The translations under genes were made by a program, and so were the position numbers. Shown piece by piece: positions 11,090 through 18,573 of a DNA stretch of 24,898 nt. The stretch is from the IMG/VR virus record IMGVR_UViG_3300020050_002145, one strand, 5' to 3'. Under the pieces are notes generated by a model, which searched no databases, was not told where the DNA came from, and saw only the letters and a list, made by a program, of their open reading frames with translations. How positions within the stretch are numbered: position 1 is the first letter of the stretch; each line of letters begins with the position of its first letter. Source of the stretch: an uncultured virus (IMG/VR IMGVR_UViG_3300020050_002145) (Duplodnaviria > Heunggongvirae > Uroviricota > Caudoviricetes).

Positions 11090-11998
11090 ATGGCTATTTC
11101 ACGTGCACAACTACTTAAAGAACTCTTACCGGGTTTGAATGCCTTGTTTGGTATGGAATACAAACGCTATGGCGAAGAACACAAAGAAATCTACGAAACC
11201 GAGACTTCTGAGCGTTCATTTGAAGAAGAAACAAAACTGTCAGGCTTCACTGCAGCACCTGTTAAAAACGAAGGCTCTGCTATTCGTTACGACAATGCTC
11301 AAGAAGCATGGACAGCTCGCTACAACCACGAAACCATCGCTATGGGCTTTTCAATCACTGAAGAGGCTATGGAAGATAACTTGTACGACTCATTGTCCTC
11401 ACGTTATACAAAATCTTTGGCTCGTGCTATGGCGTACACCAAGCAAGTTAAAGCTGCAGCTATCCTGAACAACGGTTTTAGCTCTGCATTTACCTATGGT
11501 GACGGCGTTTCTTTATTCAGCACTGCTCATCCACTAGTATCTGGTGGTGTTAACAGCAACACTTTCACTACTCCTGCTGATTTGAACGAAACTTCTTTGG
11601 AAGCTGCCGTTATTCAGATCGCTGGTTGGACTGATGAACGTGGTCTGTTGATCGCTGCTAAACCAAAGAAGCTGATCGTTCCACCAAATCTGCAATTCGT
11701 TGCAACTCGTTTATTAGAGACCGAACTCCGTGTTGGTACAACTGATAACGACATCAACGCAATCAAGAACAATGGTTCGATCCCAGAAGGCTACACCATC
11801 AATCACTATCTGACCGACACAAACGGTTGGTTCTTGACCACTGATGTACCTAATGGCTTGAAGCATTTCGTTCGTATGCCTTTATCCACCTCTACTGATG
11901 GTGACTTCGATACAGGTAACGTACGTTACAAAGCTCGTGAGCGTTATTCCTTTGGTGTATCTGATCCATTGGGCGCATTTGCTTCACCGGGTGCGTAA
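11090..11998 (+). CDS. Major capsid protein (HK97 fold, Mu gpT-like family)
   Basis: 302 aa, strong AAGGAG RBS, codon usage of a highly expressed gene, followed by a terminator. Motifs GDGVSLFSTAHP, PKKLIVPP, YLTDTNGWFL, DFDTGNVRYKARERYSFG. Confidence 0.9.
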   Translation: MAISRAQLLKELLPGLNALFGMEYKRYGEEHKEIYETETSERSFEEETKLSGFTAAPVKNEGSAIRYDNAQEAWTARYNHETIAMGFSITEEAMEDNLYDSLSSRYTKSLARAMAYTKQVKAAAILNNGFSSAFTYGDGVSLFSTAHPLVSGGVNSNTFTTPADLNETSLEAAVIQIAGWTDERGLLIAAKPKKLIVPPNLQFVATRLLETELRVGTTDNDINAIKNNGSIPEGYTINHYLTDTNGWFLTTDVPNGLKHFVRMPLSTSTDGDFDTGNVRYKARERYSFGVSDPLGAFASPGA

Positions 11999-12013
11999 TT
12001 AGTAAAAACTGAG

Positions 12014-12037
12014 AAGGGACCTTCGGGTCCCTTTTTT
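12014..12037 (+). terminator. Rho-independent terminator after the capsid gene
   Basis: AAGGGACC-TTCG-GGTCCCTT-TTTT. Confidence 0.93.
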
Positions 12038-12053
12038 ATTTATTGGAGTAGCT

Positions 12054-12257
12054 ATGTCTGACTTTATACAGAAACAAATTGAGTCTTCAGAGCGTTTATA
12101 CAAAATGATGTTGGATGATCATAAAGAACGTATTGGAAAGATTACAGAAGCGTATAATTTGAGTGAAAGTCTTTTAAATAAATTAAAAGAGCGTGATGAA
12201 GAGATAGCAAAACTGCGCCATAAACTGAGCGTGTACGAAACACTAGAGCGCATGTAG
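12054..12257 (+). CDS. Small coiled-coil hypothetical protein (67 aa)
   Basis: GGAG RBS; heptad-like pattern LLNKLKERDEEIAKLRHKL. Confidence 0.75.
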   Translation: MSDFIQKQIESSERLYKMMLDDHKERIGKITEAYNLSESLLNKLKERDEEIAKLRHKLSVYETLERM

Positions 12258-12347
12258 CCTGTTTTTGATTTGTAATATTTGTGGTGTAGTATTAAATGGC
12301 AGTCGAGGTGGCTGTGGGCATGTTGTCATTTTAATACGGAGAATATT

Positions 12348-12587
12348 ATGAAAGTTAGAGTTACTTTTGAGTGCGATTACGATGAGTTGTTTGATACCTA
12401 CGAGTACGAAGAGTACGAAGAGTTTGAGGATGACGAAGATGACATCGAATACGATGAAGACGGTGTAGCTTGGTGGTTTGATGCAGAAGAAGAAATCTGG
12501 TATTTCTTTGATGAAGACGAAGATGATTGGTTTGAGTGGGACGAATCCGAGTACTACGACTTTGAAGATGAAGAAGTAGCTGCTTGA
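12348..12587 (+). CDS. Hyper-acidic, aromatic-rich mini-protein (79 aa)
   Basis: ATG 12348 with a GGAGA RBS at 12338-12342. 39/79 residues Asp/Glu, 21/79 aromatic. Followed by a terminator. Confidence 0.8.
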   Translation: MKVRVTFECDYDELFDTYEYEEYEEFEDDEDDIEYDEDGVAWWFDAEEEIWYFFDEDEDDWFEWDESEYYDFEDEEVAA

Positions 12588-12952
12588 TCTAAGGGGGCTT
12601 CGGCCTCCTTTTTCTTTTTCTGTAGCAATTCTGCGTCATGTAACTTTCTGTGGCAATTTGCACAAAGGACAATACAGCGTTCTTCTATTTCTTTTAACGC
12701 CCCTTTGTAATTTCCATTTGTAAGTAGCTTATTAACTTTTTTATTATCTTTTGCCCTAACAACATGGTGAAAATCAAAGGTAGCGGGGTGGTTTTCTCCA
12801 CACTGTACACACGATAAAGTCGCTTTGTATAGTCGCCATTTTTCCCTATATTTTTCTTTATTGGACTTAATAGTCGCTTTAATCTTAGCTGTATGTTTAG
12901 CGTAATGCCGTTTAGCTATCTCTTTTTTCTTTTCTTTATCTTTAACCGGCAT
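12554..12952 (-). CDS. HNH endonuclease (free-standing, antisense to the late operon)
   Basis: CVQCG...FDFHHV...CIVLCANCHRKLH is the zinc-binding HNH pattern; basic N-terminus; AGGT RBS. Confidence 0.9.
   Translation of the reverse strand: MPVKDKEKKKEIAKRHYAKHTAKIKATIKSNKEKYREKWRLYKATLSCVQCGENHPATFDFHHVVRAKDNKKVNKLLTNGNYKGALKEIEERCIVLCANCHRKLHDAELLQKKKKEAEAPLDQAATSSSSKS
12591..12613 (+). terminator. Rho-independent terminator
   Basis: AAGGGGGC-TTCG-GCCTCCTT-TTT directly after the stop at 12587; lies inside the antisense HNH ORF. Confidence 0.85.
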
Positions 12953-12980
12953 ACATACCTTGATTAAGTATGAAAAACGC

Positions 12981-13008
12981 TTGCATTCTATATTAGATAT
13001 GGTATAAC
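12981..13008 (+). promoter_or_regulatory. Possible sigma70-like rightward promoter
   Basis: TTGCAT, 16-nt spacer, TATAAC with a TGn extension. Spacing and -10 are imperfect. Would start transcription just before the structured leader. Confidence 0.45.
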
Positions 13009-13017
13009 AACAACATT

Positions 13018-13090
13018 CCGGGAACTCCGGTGTGTCAAATAGCCCCGGCTAGTAACATGCAAATTGACGCACTTAACTCGCATGTGAGGA
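13018..13090 (+). ncRNA. Structured RNA leader with three interleaved stems (double pseudoknot); candidate Mu-gpT-DE-like motif
   Basis: P1 CCGGG 13018-22 / CCCGG 13044-48; P2 GTGTGTCAA 13030-38 / TTGACGCAC 13064-72; P3 ACATGC 13055-60 / GCATGT 13080-85, abutting the GAGGA RBS at 13086-90. Confidence 0.6.
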
Positions 13091-13098
13091 TATATATT

Positions 13099-13575
13099 AT
13101 GGGTTTCGCTACACACCTAGGCCCTTGGCTGCTCGGTACTGTTAAAAATACAACCGGTACCACTTCTGGTTTAGTTCGCAATATGGGCGCAACTGTAGTC
13201 GCTCAAACTATTCCTGTAACTTTCACCACGTTTACTAATTCATTGACCGGCACTTTAGGTTCAATCCCTGCTGGCTCGTTAATTACTGGCGTTCAGATCA
13301 TTACGTCTACTGACTTTAGCTCCGCTACTACATTAAAGATTACTATCGGTGGTACTGATGTAGCTACAGCTTCTACTATTACTTCAACTGGCTTTATTAG
13401 TGTAACAATAGCTTCTACTTTCGCTGCTACCGCTGCTAATACTGGCACAACTGACGACTTGATTACTTACACAGCTACTGGTACTTCTTTAACTACTGGT
13501 GCTGCTACTGTTGTAATTCAGTATGTTGTTCGTGACTCTAACGGCAACGCTAACCCTACTGCTACTCAACAATAA
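13099..13575 (+). CDS. Putative virion structural protein (158 aa, Thr-rich beta protein, MGFATHLGPW...)
   Basis: ATG 13099 after a GAGGA RBS (track start 13030 trimmed); composition and position after the capsid gene. Confidence 0.7.
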   Translation: MGFATHLGPWLLGTVKNTTGTTSGLVRNMGATVVAQTIPVTFTTFTNSLTGTLGSIPAGSLITGVQIITSTDFSSATTLKITIGGTDVATASTITSTGFISVTIASTFAATAANTGTTDDLITYTATGTSLTTGAATVVIQYVVRDSNGNANPTATQQ

Positions 13576-13869: not shown

Positions 13870-14107
13870 GTCACCAGCATGGCAGAGAAAAGAAGGCAAG
13901 AACCCCGCTGGGGGTTTGAACGCCAAGGGGAGAGCCTCCGCGAAAAAGCAAGGCATGAATTTGAAAGCTCCCCAGCCGGAAGGCGGCTCAAGGAAAGAGT
14001 CGTTCTGCGCCCGTATGTCAGGTATGAAAAAGAAGCTTACATCTGCGAAAACAGCAAATGACCCGAATAGCCGCATCAATAAATCTTTGAGGGCGTGGAA
14101 ATGCTAG
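13862..14107 (+). CDS. Small basic phage protein (81 aa, MAKSPAWQRKEGK...SFCARM...SLRAWKC)
   Basis: ATG 13862 overlaps the upstream stop. I recall this as a recurrent phage family of unknown function (not verified). Confidence 0.75.
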   Translation: MAKSPAWQRKEGKNPAGGLNAKGRASAKKQGMNLKAPQPEGGSRKESFCARMSGMKKKLTSAKTANDPNSRINKSLRAWKC

Positions 14108-14280
14108 ACCAACACGAAACAACTAAATACGCAGTTGATGCGTTATCTTTTATGACAGTACTAGGTACACTGATGGAAGCACTTCCAGCTATTGCGGCAT
14201 TATTTACTATCATCTGGACTGGTATACGTATCTGGGAAACCAAAACTGTTCAGAAATTTATACACAAGGACAGATCATGA
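14101..14280 (+). CDS. Small membrane protein, putative holin
   Basis: Hydrophobic stretch ALSFMTVLGTLMEALPAIAALFTIIWTGIRIW and a basic C-terminus. Confidence 0.55.
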   Translation: MLDQHETTKYAVDALSFMTVLGTLMEALPAIAALFTIIWTGIRIWETKTVQKFIHKDRS

Positions 14281-15200
14281 AACGCAAAATGAAAAAGTTT
14301 AACGAAGGTGGTAAGACCTACGAGCAAGAAGACGAAGGTATTTTTGGTGGCAAAGTAAATTACCGTGAAGATAAAGAAACAGGTAAAAAATATGTAGCTG
14401 GCAAGGCTAACCCTTTTGATCGTAATCCAGCAGAACAACGTTATTACTCTATGGATGACGTTAAGGGCAAACTATCTGGTTTGTTCGGTGGTAAGAAAGA
14501 AGATTCTTCGTCATCTAAGTTTGACGAATTAGAGTCAGTAGGTGGCGCAGGTCGTCGCCCTCGTACTATTGAAGAACAGATTGGTCGTAAAGCAGAAGAT
14601 AAACCTGCTAAGGGTATTGCTTCTAACTTTAAATCTTCTGAACCTAAATTTGAGCGTAATGACAATGAGAAGAGCCTACCTGATGTAAAGAAAGCTGCTC
14701 GTAAAGATAAAGGTGCTTCTGATGATAGAAAATCTTTAGGCGACAAAGCTAATCGATTACCCGGCAACGCAGCTGATAAGGATAAAAAAGTCACTCTACT
14801 ACCCGGTAGAGGGGATGATAAAAAGTCTTTAGGTGAAGGCGCTACCCGTATGTCATCTGAGTCAGTGGGCGACGCAAATAAATCGTCCGCGTACTATAAA
14901 AAGCCAGAAAAGAGCGAGAAAAAAGGCTTTAGTACTAAGATGGGAAAAACTAATGAAGAACGTGAAGCCCAAGCTAAAGCTAACCGTGAAGCGTTATCAG
15001 AATCTGTTTCAGGTATATCTAAATACTTCCGTAACCCGTTTACTGAAGAAAGAGAATATAAAAAGGATAAACCTTTTACCAGAAATTTAAATGCTAAACC
15101 TACTGCCGACCAGATGAAGAAAATGGCTAAAGGCGGTACAGTAAAATCAGCGTCAGCTCGTGCAGACGGCTGCGCTATAAGAGGTAAGACTCGTGCCTAG
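14277..15200 (+). CDS. Lys-rich low-complexity protein with GG tags and a DGxAxRGKT tail
   Basis: 307 aa, ATGA overlap. N-terminal KKFNEGG, internal DD(R/K)KSLG repeat, C-terminal KKMAKGGTVKSASARADGCAIRGKTRA. Confidence 0.8.
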   Translation: MKRKMKKFNEGGKTYEQEDEGIFGGKVNYREDKETGKKYVAGKANPFDRNPAEQRYYSMDDVKGKLSGLFGGKKEDSSSSKFDELESVGGAGRRPRTIEEQIGRKAEDKPAKGIASNFKSSEPKFERNDNEKSLPDVKKAARKDKGASDDRKSLGDKANRLPGNAADKDKKVTLLPGRGDDKKSLGEGATRMSSESVGDANKSSAYYKKPEKSEKKGFSTKMGKTNEEREAQAKANREALSESVSGISKYFRNPFTEEREYKKDKPFTRNLNAKPTADQMKKMAKGGTVKSASARADGCAIRGKTRA

Positions 15201-15627
15201 CGTTAGTAAGAAGCAAGAAAAGTTTATGCAAGCGGTGGCTCACAACCCTAAGTTTGCAAAAAAGGCGGGTGTTCCGCAAAGTGTGGGTAAAGAGTTCACT
15301 AAATCAGGAGGCGGTATGGTTACAAAAATGAATCCCGGCATGACGGCAATGATGAAGAAAAAAGCTCCAGCTAAGAAAATGGCAAAGGGTGGCTATGCTG
15401 ATGGCGGTATGCCAATGGTTATGAAAGACGGTCAAAAGGTTCCAGCATTTGCAGCAGACGGCAAAGGCAAGATGGCTAAAGGCGGTATGGCTATGAAGAA
15501 GATGGCTGGTGGCGGTTTAGCTGCTGGTCACAAAGCAGCTGACGGTGTTGCTTCTAAAGGCAAAACTAAAGCCGCCATGCCAAAGATGGCTGGTGCTAAA
15601 AACATGAAAAAGGGTGGGTACTGCTAA
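15193..15627 (+). CDS. Basic Met/Lys/Gly-rich protein with five [MY]xxGG repeats
   Basis: GTG start with GAGG RBS; MAKGG, YADGG, MAKGG, MAGGG, MKKGG; also ADGVASKGKTKA. Confidence 0.8.
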   Translation: MPSVSKKQEKFMQAVAHNPKFAKKAGVPQSVGKEFTKSGGGMVTKMNPGMTAMMKKKAPAKKMAKGGYADGGMPMVMKDGQKVPAFAADGKGKMAKGGMAMKKMAGGGLAAGHKAADGVASKGKTKAAMPKMAGAKNMKKGGYC

Positions 15628-15902
15628 TGATGGCCTCGCGCGGTATGGGTGATATTAACCCTTCCAAAATGCCCGGTGGGAAAAAGAAAGCCCGTCGGGA
15701 TAACACCGACTTTACTAAATATAAAGAAGGTGGAAAGGTTAATGCTGCTGGTAATTACACGAATCCCGGTCTACGTAAGAAGATTGTGTCTCAAGTAAAA
15801 GCCGCAGCAACGCACGGTACAGGCGCAGGTCAGTGGTCAGCACGTAAAGCTCAGCTTGTTGCTAAGAAATATAAAGCAGCAGGTGGAGGATATAAAGATT
15901 GA
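15627..15902 (+). CDS. Basic protein, N-terminal half of a DUF5872-like domain
   Basis: NYTNPGLRKKI...GQWSARKAQL...YKAAGGGY; also YKEGGKV. Family name is from memory. Confidence 0.7.
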   Translation: MMASRGMGDINPSKMPGGKKKARRDNTDFTKYKEGGKVNAAGNYTNPGLRKKIVSQVKAAATHGTGAGQWSARKAQLVAKKYKAAGGGYKD

Positions 15903-16132
15903 AAGCGCCGCAACAATCGCTTAAAAATTGGGGAGACCAGAAATGGACAACCAAAAGCGGAAAGCCATCGTCAAAGACAGGAGAGCGTTATCTCCCAGAA
16001 AAGGCGATAAAAGCACTAAGCCCCGCCGAGTATGCAGCCACAACGAAGGCAAAGCGAAAAGGCAAGGCAGCAGGTAAACAGTTTGTTAAACAGCCGAAAG
16101 GCATTGCAAAGAAAACAGCGGGGTATAGATAA
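15899..16132 (+). CDS. Basic protein, C-terminal half of a DUF5872-like domain
   Basis: TTG start in a TTGA overlap, GGAGGA RBS; QSLKNWGDQKWTTKSG...ERYLPEKAIKALS. Confidence 0.7.
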   Translation: MKAPQQSLKNWGDQKWTTKSGKPSSKTGERYLPEKAIKALSPAEYAATTKAKRKGKAAGKQFVKQPKGIAKKTAGYR

Positions 16133-16968
16133 TGGCTAAAGTAAAAAAGATGGCATTTGGCGGTATGGGTAGTATGGCTGCTGGTATGGGTGCGTCTAGA
16201 CCCGGTATGAGAACTCCTATGGGTGGATTGGGCGGTAATCGCCCTCCTGCTGGCGCTAATTTGATGCAGAGGTACAACAACCCAACTGCACAGCCGGGAA
16301 GTCCACCTTCTACATCACAATCTAATATGCAGCAAATGCAACAAGCGCAACAAATGGCTCAATTAAGAGGTGCAATGGGCGGCAATCAACTTCCGGCTGG
16401 CGCTAACTTAATGCAAGCGTACCAAGCGAAGCCCGGTCAAGGCGCTGGTGTACCAGATTATGCTAAACCTTATATGGCACAAGCGGGCCAACCTACCTCT
16501 CCTCCTGCACCTAAACTTGCTGGTATGGGTGCTTTTATGAAAAAAGGCGGTAAGGTTAAAGCTTATGCTAAAGGCGGCGACGTTCAATCTGAAAGCAATA
16601 AAATGACTAAAAAAAGTACACCAAAACAAATTGCAGACGAAATGGAAACCGAGCAAAACTATCCTGTTTTGAATAAATATAACAAGATTGCAAAAGCAGT
16701 AGATAGAATGGACGAGGGTCCCGGTAAACAAGTAGCAAGAGGCGCAGTTTTGGCAGGTACGGTTCCGGCAGGAGTTGCACAAATTGGACACTCGCTTATT
16801 ACTGGAAAAAGAGGTAGAAGTAAAGAAGACACAGACGAGCTTGAGCGCGAAATTGGGCGTGGTCAACGTGCCGAAAAGAAAGCAAAGGGCGGCGCAATTA
16901 AATCGTCTGCTTCATCGCGTGGTGACGGATGCGCTCAACGTGGTAAGACTAGAGGACGGATGGTGTAA
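16132..16968 (+). CDS. Low-complexity (G/M/Q/P/A) protein with GG tags and a DGxAxRGKT tail
   Basis: 278 aa, TAATG-coupled; MAFGG, MKKGG, YAKGG, KAKGG; ends SASSRGDGCAQRGKTRGRMV. Confidence 0.8.
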   Translation: MAKVKKMAFGGMGSMAAGMGASRPGMRTPMGGLGGNRPPAGANLMQRYNNPTAQPGSPPSTSQSNMQQMQQAQQMAQLRGAMGGNQLPAGANLMQAYQAKPGQGAGVPDYAKPYMAQAGQPTSPPAPKLAGMGAFMKKGGKVKAYAKGGDVQSESNKMTKKSTPKQIADEMETEQNYPVLNKYNKIAKAVDRMDEGPGKQVARGAVLAGTVPAGVAQIGHSLITGKRGRSKEDTDELEREIGRGQRAEKKAKGGAIKSSASSRGDGCAQRGKTRGRMV

Positions 16969-18130: not shown

Positions 18131-18304
18131 ATGAAACACGACGATATGGCAAAAGACAAACCGATGATCAAAAAGATCGCGGGTCAAGAAGTTAAAAAGC
18201 ACGAGAAGAAAATGCACCACATGAAAAAAGGTGGCGTAACTTCTATGGACATGAAAAAAGTTGGTCGTAACATGGCGCGTGCTAATAATCAACGGAGTCG
18301 CTAA
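18131..18304 (+). CDS. Small basic protein (57 aa) absent from the ORF track; carries MKKGGV
   Basis: Hand translation MKHDDMAKDKPMIKKIAGQEVKKHEKKMHHMKKGGVTSMDMKKVGRNMARANNQRSR*; GGAG RBS at 18121; TAATG-coupled to the next gene. Confidence 0.85.
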   Translation: MKHDDMAKDKPMIKKIAGQEVKKHEKKMHHMKKGGVTSMDMKKVGRNMARANNQRSR

Positions 18305-18573
18305 TGGCTAAGTTTTCACAAAAGGTAATGGGCAAGGAAGTCGGTAATGCCGCTGTCTATGCTAAACCACACAGTATGTCTGGAGGCCCTATGGTCATGA
18401 AGAAAATGGAAGACCCTAATAAGTTAGCTGCTAATCAGATGACTAGGAAAACTGCTACGCCACGCGTAAGCGCTGGCGATCCTGCTGCGGATAATGTAAA
18501 GACTGATGGCATGAAGATTCGTGGTACAGGCGCAGCTACTAAAGGTGTAATGGCACGCGGTCCAATGGCTTAA
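18304..18573 (+). CDS. Small basic protein (89 aa) ending IRGTGAATKGVMARGPMA
   Basis: Coupled start; tail resembles the DGxAx[RK]G motif of neighbouring genes. Confidence 0.8.
   Translation: MAKFSQKVMGKEVGNAAVYAKPHSMSGGPMVMKKMEDPNKLAANQMTRKTATPRVSAGDPAADNVKTDGMKIRGTGAATKGVMARGPMA

Follow-up and report, generated by a model that had tools for sequence, protein, structure and literature searches.

Organization of the locus

The window analyzed here, a stretch of 24,898 nucleotides, is the last part (positions 62001–86898) of a virus record of 86,898 bases. It covers a head and tail module from a tailed phage, with terminase, portal, and capsid genes present. The major capsid protein gene (11090..11998, + strand) matches Pfam PF25209 (E = 1.4e-14), the Mu-like gpT family PF10124 (E = 6.3e-10), and phrog_371 (major head). 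Following it are an intrinsic-terminator-like hairpin detected by a terminator scan (12011..12036, + strand), two small ORFs, a second terminator, an HNH endonuclease gene on the − strand (12554..12952; phrog_3106, E = 2.8e-16), a promoter-like site, the leader described in this work, and the ATG at 13099. The HNH gene belongs to an insert of ~1 kb that separates the capsid gene from the leader.

The promoter-like site (12981..13008, + strand) consists of a −35 element at 12981–86 and an extended −10 element at 13000–08, and its spacing is kept in homologues. An initial annotation of this DNA had placed a possible promoter just upstream of the leader. In agreement with it, a −10-like hexamer lies at most 16 nt 5′ of the first helix, P1, in 187/203 homologous leaders, and a TTG −35 element is present in all 48 loci that have an insertion between the leader and the capsid gene; a consensus scan, however, missed the site, whose −10 hexamer ends in C. 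We infer that transcription starts near 13015, ~3 nt 5′ of P1. No terminator-like site was found on the + strand between the promoter and position 14100.

Architecture of the leader

All elements of the leader lie on the + strand. P1 (13018..13048) comprises five Watson–Crick pairs, 13018–22/13044–48, and forms a 5′ pseudoknot, its 3′ strand being the loop of a second hairpin, P1b. P2 (13030..13072), with 9 bp including one G-U pair (13030–38/13064–72), closes a three-way junction. P3 (13055..13085; 6 bp, 13055–60/13080–85) forms a 3′ pseudoknot and ends, as already noticed in the sequence, at the Shine–Dalgarno (SD) element GAGGA (13086..13090) of ATG 13099. The junction is completed by the 3-bp stem of P1b (13040..13051; 13040–42/13049–51), which is the counterpart of the inner hairpin of Rfam family RF03012, and by a lone pair, U13053–A13062 (13053..13062), which closes the loop containing the 5′ strand of P3. 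The linkers are three single purines. Both junction loops pair with flanking bases, that of P1b with the 5′ end of the message and the other one with bases touching the SD. P1 and P1b may stack to form one 8-bp helix. The initial annotation gave the coordinates of P1, P2, and P3 exactly but described the three helices as mutually interleaved; P1 and P3 each cross P2 and do not cross each other, which makes two pseudoknots. At two junction positions, the window departs from the consensus with compensation (a GU/AA variant).

Two local hairpins had been proposed to compete with P1. The first, P0 (13018..13030; 13018–21/13027–30), is a conserved alternative, being found in 174/203 leaders compared with 9.4 in shuffles and in five compensated forms. 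It excludes P1 and clips the end of P2, with which it shares its 3′ end, and its commonest form is a palindrome. By nearest-neighbor energies, P0 and P1 differ little (−5.5 versus −7.0 kcal/mol). The second, at 13040–13051, is largely not a competitor: its outer three pairs, which are P1b, coexist with P1 in 62/62 aligned leaders with perfect covariation, and only the fourth, nonconserved pair of the window would compete.

Judged from one sequence, the pattern exceeds chance only moderately. With a loose descriptor of three helices, the leader site was matched on the + strand of the window and one further site on the − strand, and there were two matches in 12 Markov strands of window length. 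The nested minimum-energy fold, in a model that does not include pseudoknots, was no better than shuffles (z = 0.38, −0.12, and 0.08).

Covariation in homologous leaders

Homologues were gathered by a search with the downstream protein and by a search with the RNA core, which listed at least 600 and at least 120 matches, respectively. After duplicates and cut ends were taken out, 281 leaders became 208 distinct ones, in sets that were chosen by sequence patterns and include near relatives. A four-helix descriptor fits 203 of these 208, and all 203 have the five Watson–Crick pairs of P1. The five that do not fit are L027, which has capsid-gene sequence in the place of the leader, and L070, L079, L214, and L222, in which P2 is bulged or P1 is missing.

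We aligned 62 distinct leaders, chosen by eye as motif-like from the first 80 loci, with MAFFT from sequence only. Two-sided changes occurred in 18/22 pairs, 83% of the cells pair compared with 30 to 43% in slid controls, and 0/500 shuffles scored as high as the alignment in pairing or in covariation. Further pair types were no more numerous than in shuffles (32 versus 35), a reflection of how MAFFT misaligns the registers of P1 and P2. P1 is paired at all five positions in 62/62 leaders, P1b is likewise paired in 62/62, and P2 is paired in 59 to 62 of 62 per position. All nine P2 pairs show two-sided changes, and the middle pair of P1b is UA in 25 leaders, AU in 23, and CG in 14. Besides the ATG, only one column of the 62-leader alignment is fully invariant.

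Changes were also placed on a tree of the downstream protein for the same 62 loci, with columns from a pairing-guided fit, which favors structure. Partner positions changed on the same branch in 23/23 events for P1, 18/18 for P1b, 95/167 for P2, and 65/111 for P3, against a background mean overlap of 0.16 over 924 other column pairs. The lone pair emerged as the top unexpected column pair, with 6/6 same-branch events, and across the 203 leaders, it is C-G in 189, U-A in 13, and unpaired in one. P0 was weak in this test (13/52) and is missing from 29/203 leaders, with some lineages lacking it. Overall, the stems for which the initial annotation had called for a covariation check proved to be conserved and covarying, and the leader is a genuine, strongly conserved doubly pseudoknotted RNA that extends to the ribosome-binding site. 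This is settled by the comparison of homologous leaders, not by the single-sequence statistics.

Two divergent loci represent natural deletion variants that would be of use as controls, as L209 (2923–3003) has no P1 and L070 (1338–1419) fits P1 poorly.

The reading frame from GTG 13030 is open in the window, and translation from it had been named as an outcome that would speak against a structured RNA. This translation is not kept, with an in-frame stop present in 176/203 leaders, and leader lengths fall in all three frames (78/65/60 among the 203), indicating that the leader is noncoding.

The protein encoded downstream of the leader

The gene at 13099..13575 (+ strand) encodes a protein of 158 aa that is, as predicted from a profile match, a capsid cement (decoration) protein homologue. 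Of the PDB entries, 7EEL ("Cement (decoration) proteins") was matched by a 94-sequence profile at E = 8.2e-6 and 7DN2 ("Cement protein gp15") at E = 0.0044; the match was weaker with smaller profiles. The protein alone had no Pfam or PHROG match at E = 0.01, and tblastn against annotated GenBank phages gave no match. Pfam, PHROG, and the protein atlas provided no family name, although phrog_486 ("virion structural protein") was matched weakly in 11/42. Nor was a recognizable RNA-binding family found in the cement protein.

Ig-like cement proteins form trimers on the capsid surface, and their N-terminal arms touch the capsid protein (PMC9698820, in part). The present protein resembles those of 7EEL and 7DN2 in that the profile match spans residues 41 to 147 of 155 and the gene follows the capsid gene. 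It differs in that the N-terminal 40 residues lie outside the match, and the likeness is one of sequence profiles. The protein has a conserved N-terminal arm, M-x-x-x-T-x-x-G-P.

Relation to Mu-gpT-DE

The initial annotation suggested that the leader is the Mu-gpT-DE motif (RF03012) or an analogue and recommended an Rfam scan. RF03012 presumably originated in Weinberg et al. 2017. Its model has 53 positions and nine pairs, ends in the SD and AUG, and is typed in Rfam as "Gene; sRNA." The term "gpT" does not occur in the main text of PMC5737381.

The scan did not place the leader in the catalogued family. No Rfam 15 family was found at the leader in the window, in the 11900–13300 stretch, or at 20 homologous loci, and RF03012 had no match in the window or the whole record at E up to 10. 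None of the 20 homologous loci reached the RF03012 gathering cutoff of 49 bits; the best overlap with a homologous leader scored 11 bits and came from the SD and AUG only. As a positive control, 18/20 pattern-picked loci scored 59 to 75 bits. In the reverse test, 62 RF03012-like loci were searched with model R1 of the present leader, and none was matched at E up to 10.

A related core was nevertheless found. RF03012-like leaders were collected with a consensus taken from the cmscan output, which gave 120 pattern matches, 48 of which were chosen by eye as motif-like; their invariant outer stem was set by the search pattern and carries no covariation. One core descriptor without P1 fits 195/208 present leaders and 89/90 RF03012-like leaders, compared with 3/624 and 1/270 shuffles (4/894 in total), the descriptor having been designed on the same leader sets. 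Both RNAs have the order outer stem, A, hairpin, AC, loop strand, GA, outer 3′ strand, and loop partner. They also share the junction letters, which are upper-case in Rfam's own consensus; in the 203 present leaders, the A and AC that flank the inner hairpin are found in 194 and 184, respectively, and the GA before the outer 3′ strand in 189. The two RNAs occupy the same slot, preceded by the capsid terminator and a −10 box and followed by the next gene; 82/92 RF03012-like leaders start 14 to 16 nt (~15 nt) after the first base of the −10-like box. The present leader also has the location by which RF03012 is known, 3′ of a Mu gpT-like capsid gene (PF10124) and before the next start. The capsid genes of the RF03012-like loci are homologous to that of the window (55–84% identical), and the downstream families overlap, as cement homologues make up 21/62 full-length genes and members of one further family are found behind either RNA.

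Comparing the two builds, the inner hairpin of the present leader has 3 bp, is completed by the P1 pseudoknot, and faces the competing P0, whereas that of RF03012-like leaders has 7 to 8 bp and no P1. The present P2 is variable and 9 bp long, whereas that of RF03012-like leaders is nearly invariant and pairs the SD. The outer 4-bp stem of RF03012, with the SD as 3′ strand within ~53 nt, is absent from the present leader, in which the 3′ strand of P2 lies 27 to 35 nt and P1 73 to 84 nt 5′ of the AUG. Finally, the present fold stops at the SD, whereas P3 of RF03012-like leaders pairs the start codon. L209, which has a long P2 and P3 but no P1, is intermediate between both builds. These comparisons indicate that the present leader is not RF03012 as defined but a more elaborate variant on the same core, and this form is absent from Rfam 15 and thereby uncatalogued there.

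RF03012-like loci (L089–L207) are of interest in themselves, as Mu-gpT-DE pairs its own SD and start codon. In 48 RF03012-like leaders, P2 pairs over the SD and P3 over the start, and a register-free helix of 4 to 7 bp over the start was found in 48/48. A G-C/C-G switch in P3 tracks codon 2 (24 GC, 12 CG, and 12 unpaired). The Rfam structure line for RF03012 includes neither P3 nor the lone pair. Mu-gpT-DE itself therefore looks like a cis-acting pseudoknotted leader, not an sRNA. Part of the extra pairs may already be in print, since the CaCoFold re-analysis lists 9 to 11 annotated and 12 to 13 predicted pairs for RF03012 (PMC7657543, in part).

Among the papers listed in literature searches, none describes the present leader. 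Short core motifs were not found in four tables of Fremin 2023 (PMC10690425), which may contain no sequences, and the motif may be among the 10,006 candidates of that study.

Association with an exchangeable slot after the capsid gene

The leader had been proposed to remain attached to the downstream gene rather than to the capsid gene, and the distances agree. P1 lies 73 to 84 nt from the AUG in 203/203 leaders, whereas the distance from the capsid stop codon to the leader ranges from ~50 to 1520 nt (≤250 nt in 136/184 loci and >250 nt in 48/184). When the RNA core was searched first, an SD-preceded start followed 41 to 47 nt after the core in 119/120 matches listed (35–72 nt were allowed), and 76 of the 119 starts among these listed matches belonged to homologues of the 13099 gene. 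The leader is single copy in 39/40 records, and no record had two. With respect to the SD core, P3 overlaps it in 47 of the 203 leaders, abuts it in 32, and ends 1 to 3 nt short of it in 124.

None of 24 RNA runs contained half of the sequence words searched for, and the four that were compared with the window gave contigs of relatives only. One RNA-library contig of a relative spans 13026–13331 across the start codon, although contigs do not prove one transcript.

In the motif-first sets, 50/117 full-length genes behind either RNA type are cement homologues, and the rest fall into 16 other families, most of which carry an N-terminal T-x-x-G-P arm; no named function was found for these 16. We mapped RNA type and gene family on capsid trees restricted to loci with at least 240 capsid residues. 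On the tree of 89 loci, RNA type changes 3 times versus 37 times for the downstream gene family, and cement versus other changes 16 times compared with 29.6 when shuffled; on the tree of 180 rows, RNA type changes 4 times. The difference between 3 and 37 changes implies that the RNA is part of the capsid module, where it serves a slot for interchangeable surface proteins. By these comparisons, the post-capsid slot is an exchangeable capsid-surface module.

The slot, for example at L093, L095, L097, L304, L305, and L316, accommodates at least 17 unrelated protein bodies of 69 to 248 aa, mostly with one N-terminal arm.

Proposed function and alternative explanations

Comparison of homologues supports the earlier proposal that the leader is most likely a cis-acting translational regulator, one that would control initiation of the slot gene. 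It has a trait of operators of the gp32 and S15 type, a structured RNA at the initiation region of the downstream gene. The reading that we favor, at about even odds of being right, is a cis translational operator gated by a protein ligand, either a conserved protein of the head or the shared arm at the N terminus. The leader would be the entire 5′ untranslated region of a capsid-surface-protein transcript starting ~3 nt before P1. During transcription, P0 would form first and keep P1 open, giving a translatable state, whereas the fully knotted state, with P3 at or on the SD, would hinder 30S loading. A protein recognizing the shape of the junction could shift the balance to the knotted state. 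Candidates for it are a conserved head component or the N-terminal arm of the surface protein when there is no capsid to bind, and the surface protein would then be made in step with capsids.

Two observations narrow the ligand. Gene bodies are swapped behind an RNA that follows the capsid lineage, which makes a conserved head component or the N-terminal arm the likely ligand, and the presence of the same RNA before unrelated gene bodies disfavors the cement domain as an autogenous ligand. The ligand is thus probably not the cement domain. As for the direction of control, the RF03012 build pairs the SD and AUG, so the folded state points to OFF. However, P3 pairs no SD base in 156/203 leaders, including the window, so blocking would rest on steric effects there, and initiation can equally be helped by a helix immediately 5′ of an SD. 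The absence of P0 from 29 leaders, its weak tree support, and the complete lack of P1 in L209 also count against a protein-gated operator.

A ligand-free element is possible, though we give it clearly less weight than the operator. The leader would then set a fixed or kinetically timed translation rate and/or shield the 5′ end from decapping and RNase E, keeping a late message stable. Such a role would fit the fact that P0 and P1 both pair bases 3 to 4 nt from the inferred start, the scarcity of invariant bases, and the exchangeable gene body, and T4 has ligandless SD-sequestering and translation-enhancing structures (PMC3014915, in part). A plain hairpin would suffice for this purpose, however, leaving the conserved junction, the lone pair, and the three purine linkers in two sequence-dissimilar families unexplained.

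More doubtful still is a two-state switch of new architecture, with both junction loops knotted to the flanks, that senses the capsid assembly state or a small ligand and of which RF03012 and the present leader would be two builds in one widespread family. In such a switch, the toggle between P0 and P1 at the 5′ end would gate folding of the knot on the ribosome-binding site. If true, no earlier ligand-gated RNA is known to fix how much surface protein is made per capsid, here via the shared N-terminal arm of interchangeable genes.

We regard it as unlikely that the leader is a riboswitch-like sensor in which the junction forms the pocket for a small molecule or ion and P3 serves as expression platform. 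The compact junction with its conserved purines, the pseudoknot at the ribosome-binding site, and the alternative P0 would suit a sensor, but few bases are conserved, the window departs from the consensus at two junction positions with compensation, the RNA occurs only before one phage structural gene slot, and no Rfam 15 riboswitch model matches.

An independent RNA that merely shares the promoter, be it an sRNA, a packaging-type RNA, or a self-cleaving ribozyme, is less probable again. The leader has its own promoter, occurs once and beside the capsid gene, and has its relative RF03012 typed as an sRNA, all of which is compatible with independence, and double pseudoknots occur in ribozymes. 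On the other hand, the fold runs into the SD and AUG with no + strand terminator-like site up to 14100, the RNA contig of a relative crosses the start codon, no catalytic core is conserved, and no ribozyme model of Rfam 15 matches. Lastly, chance helices or a coding sequence from GTG 13030, for which the open frame in the window, the two control-strand matches, and the unremarkable folding energy might speak, are refuted by the comparative data, namely covariation, in-frame stops, and the lack of a frame preference.

Comparison with known phage leaders

The protein-gated operator would have a precedent in T4, whose gp32 represses via a leader pseudoknot (PMC3014915, in part). Both are pseudoknots in a phage mRNA leader 5′ of the ribosome-binding site, and protein-dependent repression is in the present case proposed only. 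The gene 32 operator is a two-stem knot 67 nt upstream, followed by an unstructured A/U track, and belongs to the gene of a DNA-binding protein, whereas the present leader is a junction with two knots that lies directly against the SD of a gene for a virion surface protein.

The soc gene of T4 is a capsid decoration gene. T4 soc, e, and 49 carry helices that sequester the SD or AUG (PMC3014915, in part), and the scaffolding protein of P22 is autogenously regulated (PMC5529062, in part). With the present leader, these systems would share the post-transcriptional control of late or head-assembly genes. In T4 soc, e, and 49, a late promoter inside the helices removes them, whereas the inferred start of the present transcript lies 5′ of the whole fold. 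On present evidence, the leader is not a new kind of system.

With this analysis, an orphan catalogued as "sRNA" becomes a testable family of cis regulators in at least two builds. The fold is complete and backed by covariation, with the lone pair and the competing hairpin included, and the range of candidate ligands is narrower. Little work has addressed the way in which phages match the supply of decoration protein to the number of capsids. The leader is very common in uncultured aquatic phages, as judged from the numbers of matches listed, and it is small enough for reporter, probing, and structural work.

Other features of the window and the record

Homologues of the HNH gene occur in 18/48 loci with more than 250 nt between the capsid stop codon and the leader versus 0/136 loci with shorter gaps. 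Located between the capsid terminator and the leader promoter, these free-standing genes are in reverse orientation in 17 of 18 cases, and this interval is a homing-type insertion hot spot. Within the insert of the window, a 79-aa ORF (12348–12587) with its own terminator encodes an extremely acidic product rich in Asp, Glu, Trp, and Tyr; it has no Pfam or PHROG match and, as a guess, could be a putative DNA-mimic-type protein.

Further downstream, inside the structural operon, a 61-aa ORF (14095–14280) with two hydrophobic stretches and a charged tail looks holin-like by eye. The regions 14277–16968 and 18131–18573 contain a series of small basic ORFs rich in Met, Lys, and Gly, with a common short K-G-G motif, which are probably internal virion proteins.

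The record as a whole carries two terminase–portal–capsid modules that are 66 to 94% alike (about 3,400–24,000 and 63,800–86,900), and it probably joins a genome of ~62 kb to the start of the head module of a related phage as an assembly artefact. A leader copy at record positions 12660–12747 was considered as a paralogue and rejected, the record probably being a join of two related phages. In the genome collection, there were four matches, in metagenome-assembled genomes of different taxa. The first module of the record has an exact 121-nt duplication within its cement gene (12889–13009 = 13110–13230).
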